From Escherichia coli (GTDB lineage Bacteria > Pseudomonadota > Gammaproteobacteria > Enterobacterales > Enterobacteriaceae), in NCBI RefSeq assembly GCF_003334405.1, contig NZ_QOWM01000068.1: a stretch of 365 nucleotides of DNA. The stretch is one strand, 5' to 3'. How positions within the stretch are numbered: position 1 is the first letter of the stretch; each line of letters opens with the position of its first letter. Below, in pieces: positions 1 to 365 of this stretch. The position numbers and the translations under genes were made by a program. A model generated the notes under the pieces. That model was not told the origin of the DNA and searched no databases. It saw only the letters and a program-made list of their open reading frames with translations.

Positions 1-365
1 GCGCTGTTGGTCGCCAGGTAAAGATGCGGGCTTAACCGGATATCCGGCGGCAGCGCCCCCCACAGCCGCGCCAGCGTATGGCCGTCCGGCTGTGCTGCCT
101 TACCACCGCGCACCAGCCACATTGACTCACTGCGGCTGTACACCGCCTCCCCCGGCAGCAGCGGCTCAAAGTGAATGCTCCGCCCGCCGTTGTCGTTGAG
201 TATCAGTCCGTCATCACGTAGCTGTAAGCGGATATCAGAAGGCGCTTTCCAGCCGGGGCCGAAAACGCCCACCGGTGCAGGCGTCTTCGTCCGGTAGCTG
301 CTGTAGGTGCGGGAGAGAATGAACGGCAGCGGGCCGGGCAGCGCAAGGTCCGTCTCGCCGGGCAG
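1..365 (-). CDS. rhs: Internal fragment of an Rhs-family core protein (YD-repeat polymorphic toxin), N-terminal conserved region; partial at both ends
   Basis: Seen in sequence: the reverse-complement frame starting at + position 365 is open for 121 codons with no stop, and the trailing partial codon GC fits the Ala that I recall following ...LATNS in Rhs proteins. All other frames contain stops (for example minus frame 2 hits TGA after about 50 codons, minus frame 3 hits TGA after about 43 codons, + frame 3 stops at 33-35). Recall, not a search: the translation matches the conserved N-terminal region of E. coli Rhs core proteins (RhsA/B/C type), beginning roughly 55-60 residues into the protein, after the PAAR-like motif. 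High G+C (about 66%) also fits the known GC-rich Rhs core. Paralog is not assignable, so the symbol is given at family level only. Confidence 0.85.
   Translation of the reverse strand, partial: MPGETDLALPGPLPFILSRTYSSYRTKTPAPVGVFGPGWKAPSDIRLQLRDDGLILNDNGGRSIHFEPLLPGEAVYSRSESMWLVRGGKAAQPDGHTLARLWGALPPDIRLSPHLYLATNS

Follow-up and report, generated by a model that had tools for sequence, protein, structure and literature searches.

The 365-nt stretch of E. coli DNA analysed here (called the window, at its full length) is an ordinary internal piece of a known chromosomal rhs gene of the rhsD/rhsE subfamily. It is usually present in a single copy per genome, and its allele can occupy either of two chromosomal loci; we hold this reading with high confidence. 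Frame 1 of the minus strand is open from end to end, and each of the three plus-strand frames contains stops. The gene piece (window positions 1-365, minus strand) comprises codons 58-178 and two bases of codon 179, with neither a start nor a stop codon in the rhs frame. It is identical over all 365 nt to nucleotides 172-536 of K-12 rhsD, and the match in K-12 MG1655 lies at positions 8001-8365 of the retrieved record (L001), within the rhsD CDS at 4256-8536 on the minus strand. The translated residues 1-121 were aligned to positions 58-178 of the 1261-position NCBIfam model NF041261 (RHS_core) with an E-value of 2.1e-75 and a score of 254 bits, where the curated cut-off of 2,000 bits is a whole-protein threshold out of reach for 121 amino acids. 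The GC content of the window is 65.8% and its GC3 is 76.9%, which is G+C-rich compared with the E. coli genome, as expected of an Rhs core; the Rhs core has been described as G+C-rich (PMC2935791). The preliminary description of this DNA had taken it for an Rhs core fragment, and this is borne out by the open frame, the NF041261 match, a match to the Pfam domain DUF6531 and the complete identity with K-12 rhsD. The gene and its family are known, and nothing within the window is unusual.

The window was compared with all five rhs loci of K-12 by identity and by an exact-word scan. For rhsD, the identity was 100% and the longest exact word 365 nt. For rhsC, the corresponding values were 78.2% and 44 nt (window 298-341), which is the longest exact stretch in common with an A/B/C-type paralog, and for both rhsA and rhsB they were 78.0% and 23 nt (from window position 319). 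In the rhsE pseudogene the window region is absent, and the longest exact word was 12 nt. Megablast reported two places in K-12 records because of the exact block shared with rhsC at 298-341. Exactly one copy of the window is present in K-12, since the 5′-truncated rhsE pseudogene lacks this region, and the mapping there is unique. The alignment to every rhs locus of a closed genome, which had been suggested earlier, thus returned rhsA, rhsB and rhsC as homologs over the whole window, with rhsD as the only near-identical locus.

The rhsABCF, rhsDE and rhsGH groups are defined rhs subfamilies (PMC2935791), and rhsD and rhsE fall into one clade, with rhsE downstream of a vgrG gene (PMC7216683); the rhsD/rhsE subfamily corresponds to Clade I of Jackson et al. 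2009 (PMC2935791). The window belongs to the RhsD/E rather than to the RhsABCF subfamily, as its identity is about 96-100% with the rhsD-locus and rhsE-locus genes of six strains, compared with 78% for K-12 rhsA, rhsB and rhsC. The latter three resemble the gene of the window in family and in architecture, and they are homologous to the window along its full length, in the same register. However, it is rhsA, rhsB and rhsC (RhsABCF subfamily) that make up the classic recombination-hotspot set of near-identical copies (97-99.5%), and rhsD is not among them. Over the 3.6-kb core in K-12, the identity is 99.5% between rhsA and rhsB and about 97.1% between either of them and rhsC, whereas that of rhsD to these three genes is 76.4-76.5%.

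The copy number was determined in a sample of 5,426 complete E. coli genomes from RefSeq, in which K-12 derivatives and clinical lineages are over-sampled. Any megablast match to the window was found in 3,761 of the 5,426 genomes, many at 100% identity. The remaining 1,665 genomes gave no megablast match, which is consistent with a pathogenic lineage without the Clade I rhs expansion of Jackson et al. (PMC2935791). To count copies of the D/E type at any identity, we used window positions 1-297 as a query, which has no 28-nt word in common with A/B/C-type genes. Such copies were found at 5,579 places in 3,530 genomes (median 2, maximum 4 per genome), and about half of the genomes having any rhsD/E-type match contain a second one. 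Near-identical copies were selected indirectly by an E-value limit of 1e-184, corresponding to at most 3 mismatches in 365 nt, and the weakest row listed had 99.2% identity. Copies at this level (at least 99.2%) were found at 2,065 places in 1,974 of the 5,426 genomes; the median was 1 per genome, and no genome had more than 3.

Is the fragment nevertheless one of several near-identical copies in its source genome, with the accompanying read pile-up and a collapsed or mis-joined assembly? The preliminary description had expected several near-identical copies per genome, and for this fragment the expectation was contradicted by the single K-12 copy, by K-12 paralogs at 78% and by the median of one copy in the 1,974 carriers. 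The 91 surplus places among these carriers, with up to three per genome, mean that at most 91 genomes (4.6% of 1,974) hold more than one near-identical copy. Strain AMSCJX03 is such a case: it has the window at 100% identity at both the rhsD and the rhsE locus, and its two genes are identical over the first 890 nt. The identity of the second copy was retrieved for two further genomes, and in both of them the sister copies differ, with 96-97% identity to the window. In MRSN352231, the rhsD-locus copy is 100% identical and the rhsE-locus copy 95.9% (15 mismatches); in E2863 it is the rhsE-locus copy that has 100% identity, and the rhsD-locus copy has 13 mismatches. Since 13-15 mismatches in 365 nt are enough for unique read placement, such copies would be told apart. 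Two other points speak for a multi-copy origin, namely that rhsA, rhsB and rhsC are truly 97-99.5% identical, and that three small "plasmid" records (described below), which consist of rhs pieces or of DNA from the rhsD locus, resemble unplaced contigs. On balance, we regard a multi-copy origin of this fragment as very improbable. A near-identical intragenomic repeat (at least two copies at ≥99% identity) is confined to a minority of genomes, for example AMSCJX03. In K-12 and most carriers, the closed assemblies have one copy in a unique context, which refutes the multi-copy claim for them; it holds for the minority represented by AMSCJX03. As for the near-identical multi-kb copies that the claim was based on, they do exist among K-12 rhsA, rhsB and rhsC (97.1-99.5%) and between rhsD and rhsE elsewhere in the core, but in most genomes the window itself is not part of them. 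A single-copy piece of an rhsD/rhsE-type gene therefore remains the preferred reading, and the fragment is uniquely mappable in K-12 as well as in the majority of E. coli genomes. In AMSCJX03, IS1B copies were seen to flank both the rhsD gene (L016, 20454-21151 and 25711-26408) and the vgrG-rhs pair (L013, 1977-2674 and 9432-10129), and the rhsE-locus gene of this strain is cut off at an IS1.

The window allele was found at two chromosomal locations; unexpectedly, many of the complete matches stand at the rhsE rather than the rhsD locus. K-12 rhsD (b0497), which is flanked by ybbP and ybbC and is position 3 in the scheme of Jackson et al. 2009, shows no difference from the window. The vgrG-linked rhs gene at the rhsE locus (position 6), which is intact in many non-K-12 strains, carries the identical 365-mer in some of them. 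This gene differs from rhsD in having a T6SS vgrG upstream, as well as in its C-terminal tip and immunity genes. At the rhsE locus of O157 2571, SC516 and MRSN352231, a 95.9% allele is present instead of the window allele, and in K-12 this locus holds the truncated pseudogene. The ybbP-rhsD context was inspected directly in K-12, MRSN352231 and AMSCJX03, and the yncH-vgrG-rhs-ydcD (rhsE) context with the identical 365-mer in E2863, WCHEC020032 and AMSCJX03.

The distribution of the allele between the two locations was measured with 427-nt junction queries, in which window positions 190-365 were joined to the first 171 nt of the gene and to 80 nt of flank; an E-value limit restricted the matches to roughly 4 mismatches at most. 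Among copies of one locus the flanks agree to at least 99%, and the flanks of rhsD are unrelated to those of rhsE. A window-type allele with the ybbP-rhsD flank was present in 1,239 genomes, and one with the vgrG flank of the rhsE locus in 816 genomes (817 places). The two queries together gave 2,056 places, which is close to the 2,065 near-identical places counted with the window. These counts imply that about 80 genomes have the window allele at both loci. Among carriers, about 60% have it at the rhsD locus and about 40% at the rhsE locus, which is a split of this collection and not a population frequency. A locus-specific marker has the same flanking genes across strains, and the window is not such a marker. 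As the same allele stands at either of two loci, one has to know the strain or the flanks to tell from which locus an isolated 365-nt fragment comes. The earlier statement that no specific locus can be assigned to the fragment therefore holds across strains (1,239 genomes with the rhsD flank versus 816 with the rhsE flank), but the reason given for it, several near-identical copies, does not.

At intact rhsE loci, about 67 nt separate the end of the T6SS vgrG from the start of the rhs gene downstream of it; the vgrG gene was located at 8603-10711 in L006, 8603-10687 in L007, 8604-10712 in L008, 4408-6516 in L011, 6603-8711 in L013 and 6604-8712 in L015. K-12 has retained neither this vgrG nor the 5′ half of rhsE. 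The rhsD locus has no vgrG. The same allele is thus met either beside a T6SS vgrG (rhsE locus) or standing alone (rhsD locus), and which of the two applies is not inferable from the fragment. Automatic annotation does not help in this respect. PGAP gave the name "rhsD" to the rhsE-locus genes of SC516 (L007, 4313-8536), E2863 (L008, 4764-8536) and AMSCJX03 (L013, 2751-6536). The gene name tracks protein similarity and not chromosomal position, so it is no evidence of the locus, and the annotation "rhsD" says nothing of which locus a copy occupies.

Ten copies from rhsD and rhsE loci were compared over the window. Of the 26 variable positions, 25 lie within 48-288 and the last is position 364; it is by these positions that the window allele is distinguished from other alleles of the rhsD/E type. 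The window allele differs at 15 positions from the common rhsE-locus allele (MRSN352231, SC516 and O157) and at 13 positions from the rhsD-locus allele of E2863, and the SNP patterns inside the window are mosaic among the ten copies. Similar patterns were seen over the whole core. The two paralogs of E2863 are 99.7-100% identical over alignment columns 1201-2700, where each is 93-98% identical to K-12 rhsD. Over columns 1-600, the rhsE-locus gene of E2863 is 98.7-100% identical to K-12 rhsD, and its rhsD-locus gene about 96%. The rhsE-locus gene of SC516 has an exact run of 2,679 nt in common with K-12 rhsD. Stretches exceeding 1.3 kb in which orthologs differ by 2-7% can be fully identical between the paralogs of one genome. 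Mosaic blocks were visible over columns 1-3600 (L008, L012, L009, L011, L013 and L016), with paralogs locally closer to each other than orthologs.

According to Jackson et al. 2009, position 3 (rhsD) was derived by duplication of position 6 (rhsE), and in 20 strains the cores cluster by position, with inter-locus recombination "infrequent (if any)" (PMC2935791). The mosaic identity described above would point to a different picture from this 2009 view. One may envisage that, after rhsD had arisen from rhsE by duplication, both cores kept swapping segments via homologous recombination or gene conversion. Judging from the alignments, the mosaics may have arisen by gene conversion or by ectopic homologous recombination, perhaps following horizontal transfer. 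We consider it fairly probable that rhsD and rhsE segments move between these loci, which are about 1 Mb apart, often enough that alleles of the 5′ core do not track position. The scale of allele sharing between the two loci is the only mildly new point of this analysis, and the rest is already known. The findings leave known Rhs biology unchanged, and their importance is mainly practical.

The preliminary description had also warned of a risk of rearrangement, and for the family this warning is justified: recombination between rhsD and rhsE producing a circle of ~957 kb has been documented by experiment in an E. coli × Salmonella hybrid (PMC9551528), and the original hotspot behaviour of rhs genes is summarised in PMC2935791. 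The rhsD and rhsE genes have the same orientation. Pairs of rhsD and rhsE within a genome have exact runs of 1,093-1,429 nt in parts of the core other than the window. Such direct repeats ~1 Mb apart, with exact runs of more than 1 kb, are a real substrate for large duplications or circles. In K-12, the crossover must fall outside the window, because K-12 rhsE lacks the window region. The window is among the more discriminating parts of the rhs gene.

We next considered whether the fragment comes from a mobile element, a plasmid or a phage, rather than from a chromosomal rhs locus. Nine PLSDB records match the window, one of them, a Klebsiella oxytoca "plasmid", at 100%, and of the 10,473 megablast places in the E. 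coli collection, 7 belong to plasmid records. The other 10,466 places are chromosomal, however, and a search of the phage collection with the window gave no match. The Klebsiella record consists of 19 kb of linear DNA from the E. coli chromosome, contains no plasmid genes and is typed as non-mobilizable, and the remaining PLSDB matches are Mb-sized records or 7-kb rhs fragments. We therefore consider an origin from a mobile element next to impossible, and the chromosomal rhs gene is retained. The records themselves deserve a short description. NZ_CP069916.1 (L017), deposited as "Klebsiella oxytoca FDAARGOS_1334 plasmid unnamed5", is linear (1-19343) and contains the window at 15487-15851. Its gene content is that of the E. 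coli chromosome, ybbA-ybbP-rhsD-ybbC...mnmH-allS-allA-allR-gcl-hyi-glxR, and the record probably represents a contaminant or a contig that was left unplaced. CP048292.1 (L018, 7,010 bp) and NZ_OY757120.1 (L019, 7,307 bp) contain only rhs fragments and transposase remnants; the former has 95.4% identity to the window, with indels, and the latter is of the A/B/C type (79.6%). These two E. coli "plasmids" have the appearance of rhs repeat contigs that were left unplaced or were circularised falsely. Another member of the plasmid collection, NZ_OL790696.1, is chromosome-sized (4.8 Mb). Judged by their gene content, the three small records would fit the claim that rhs repeats trouble assemblies.

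Another functional element on or instead of the rhs frame (for instance a small RNA, antisense gene or structured repeat) is just as implausible: the plus-strand ORFs (35 and 40 aa) and out-of-frame minus-strand ORFs (45 and 47 aa) are unsupported and of the kind that a 66% GC sequence would give, the weak Rfam match to isrB (17.2 bits, E = 0.85) from a permissive search has half of the 35-bit gathering threshold and is at chance level, and the two short imperfect direct repeats are two-copy, with 79% matches, and correspond to a peptide motif in the rhs frame. A repeat search found no inverted repeats within the window. The imperfect direct repeat of 19 nt lies at window positions 33-51 and 225-243, 192 nt apart, where the rhs frame encodes PPDIRLS (residues 163-169) and PSDIRLQ (residues 99-105), respectively.

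The domains encoded by the rhsD piece were assigned with Pfam and by alignment to Tse5 of Pseudomonas aeruginosa (8cp6), which is the closest solved structure. Window positions 168-365 (minus strand) encode RhsD residues 58-123, which make up most of DUF6531, the N-terminal plug in solved Rhs toxins. Pfam DUF6531 (PF20148) matched residues 4-66 of the fragment with an E-value of 8e-15, and residues 46-123 of full RhsD with an E-value of 5.8e-18. According to the Tse5 alignment, window positions 3-167 (minus strand) encode residues 124-178, comprising the end of the plug and the entry to the beta-barrel shell, ahead of the point where YD repeats become recognisable. In full K-12 RhsD, Pfam RHS_repeat matches start weakly at residues 209-243 and continue from 320 to 756, and the RHS core-end domain PF03527 is at 1155-1190, outside the window. 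The C-terminal tip of rhs genes is divergent past about nucleotide 3600.

The window peptide was aligned to residues 11-117 of chain B in 8cp6, equal to Tse5 residues 58-164, with an E-value of 3e-12, and the shell chain of this structure begins at the equivalent of RhsD residue 48. Tse5 is a T6SS Rhs effector with a different C-terminal toxin, and its alignment to RhsD is distant and cross-genus, but its DUF6531 plug and first shell strands align with the window peptide. At ~30% identity to Tse5, the predicted function of the window is to encode most of the RhsD plug and the first strands of the Rhs cage. By homology, the RhsD cage would enclose the C-terminal toxin and would be carried on the VgrG spike via a short PAAR-like N-terminus. 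K-12 is not known to have a T6SS. The N-terminal plug of Tse5 consists of residues 48-124, which have been equated with DUF6531; it closes one end of the Rhs cage, and N-terminal cleavage takes place at K47/P48 (PMC10684867). RhsD has N47-P48 at the position aligned to K47-P48 of Tse5, so that N47/P48 may be the counterpart of this cleavage site.
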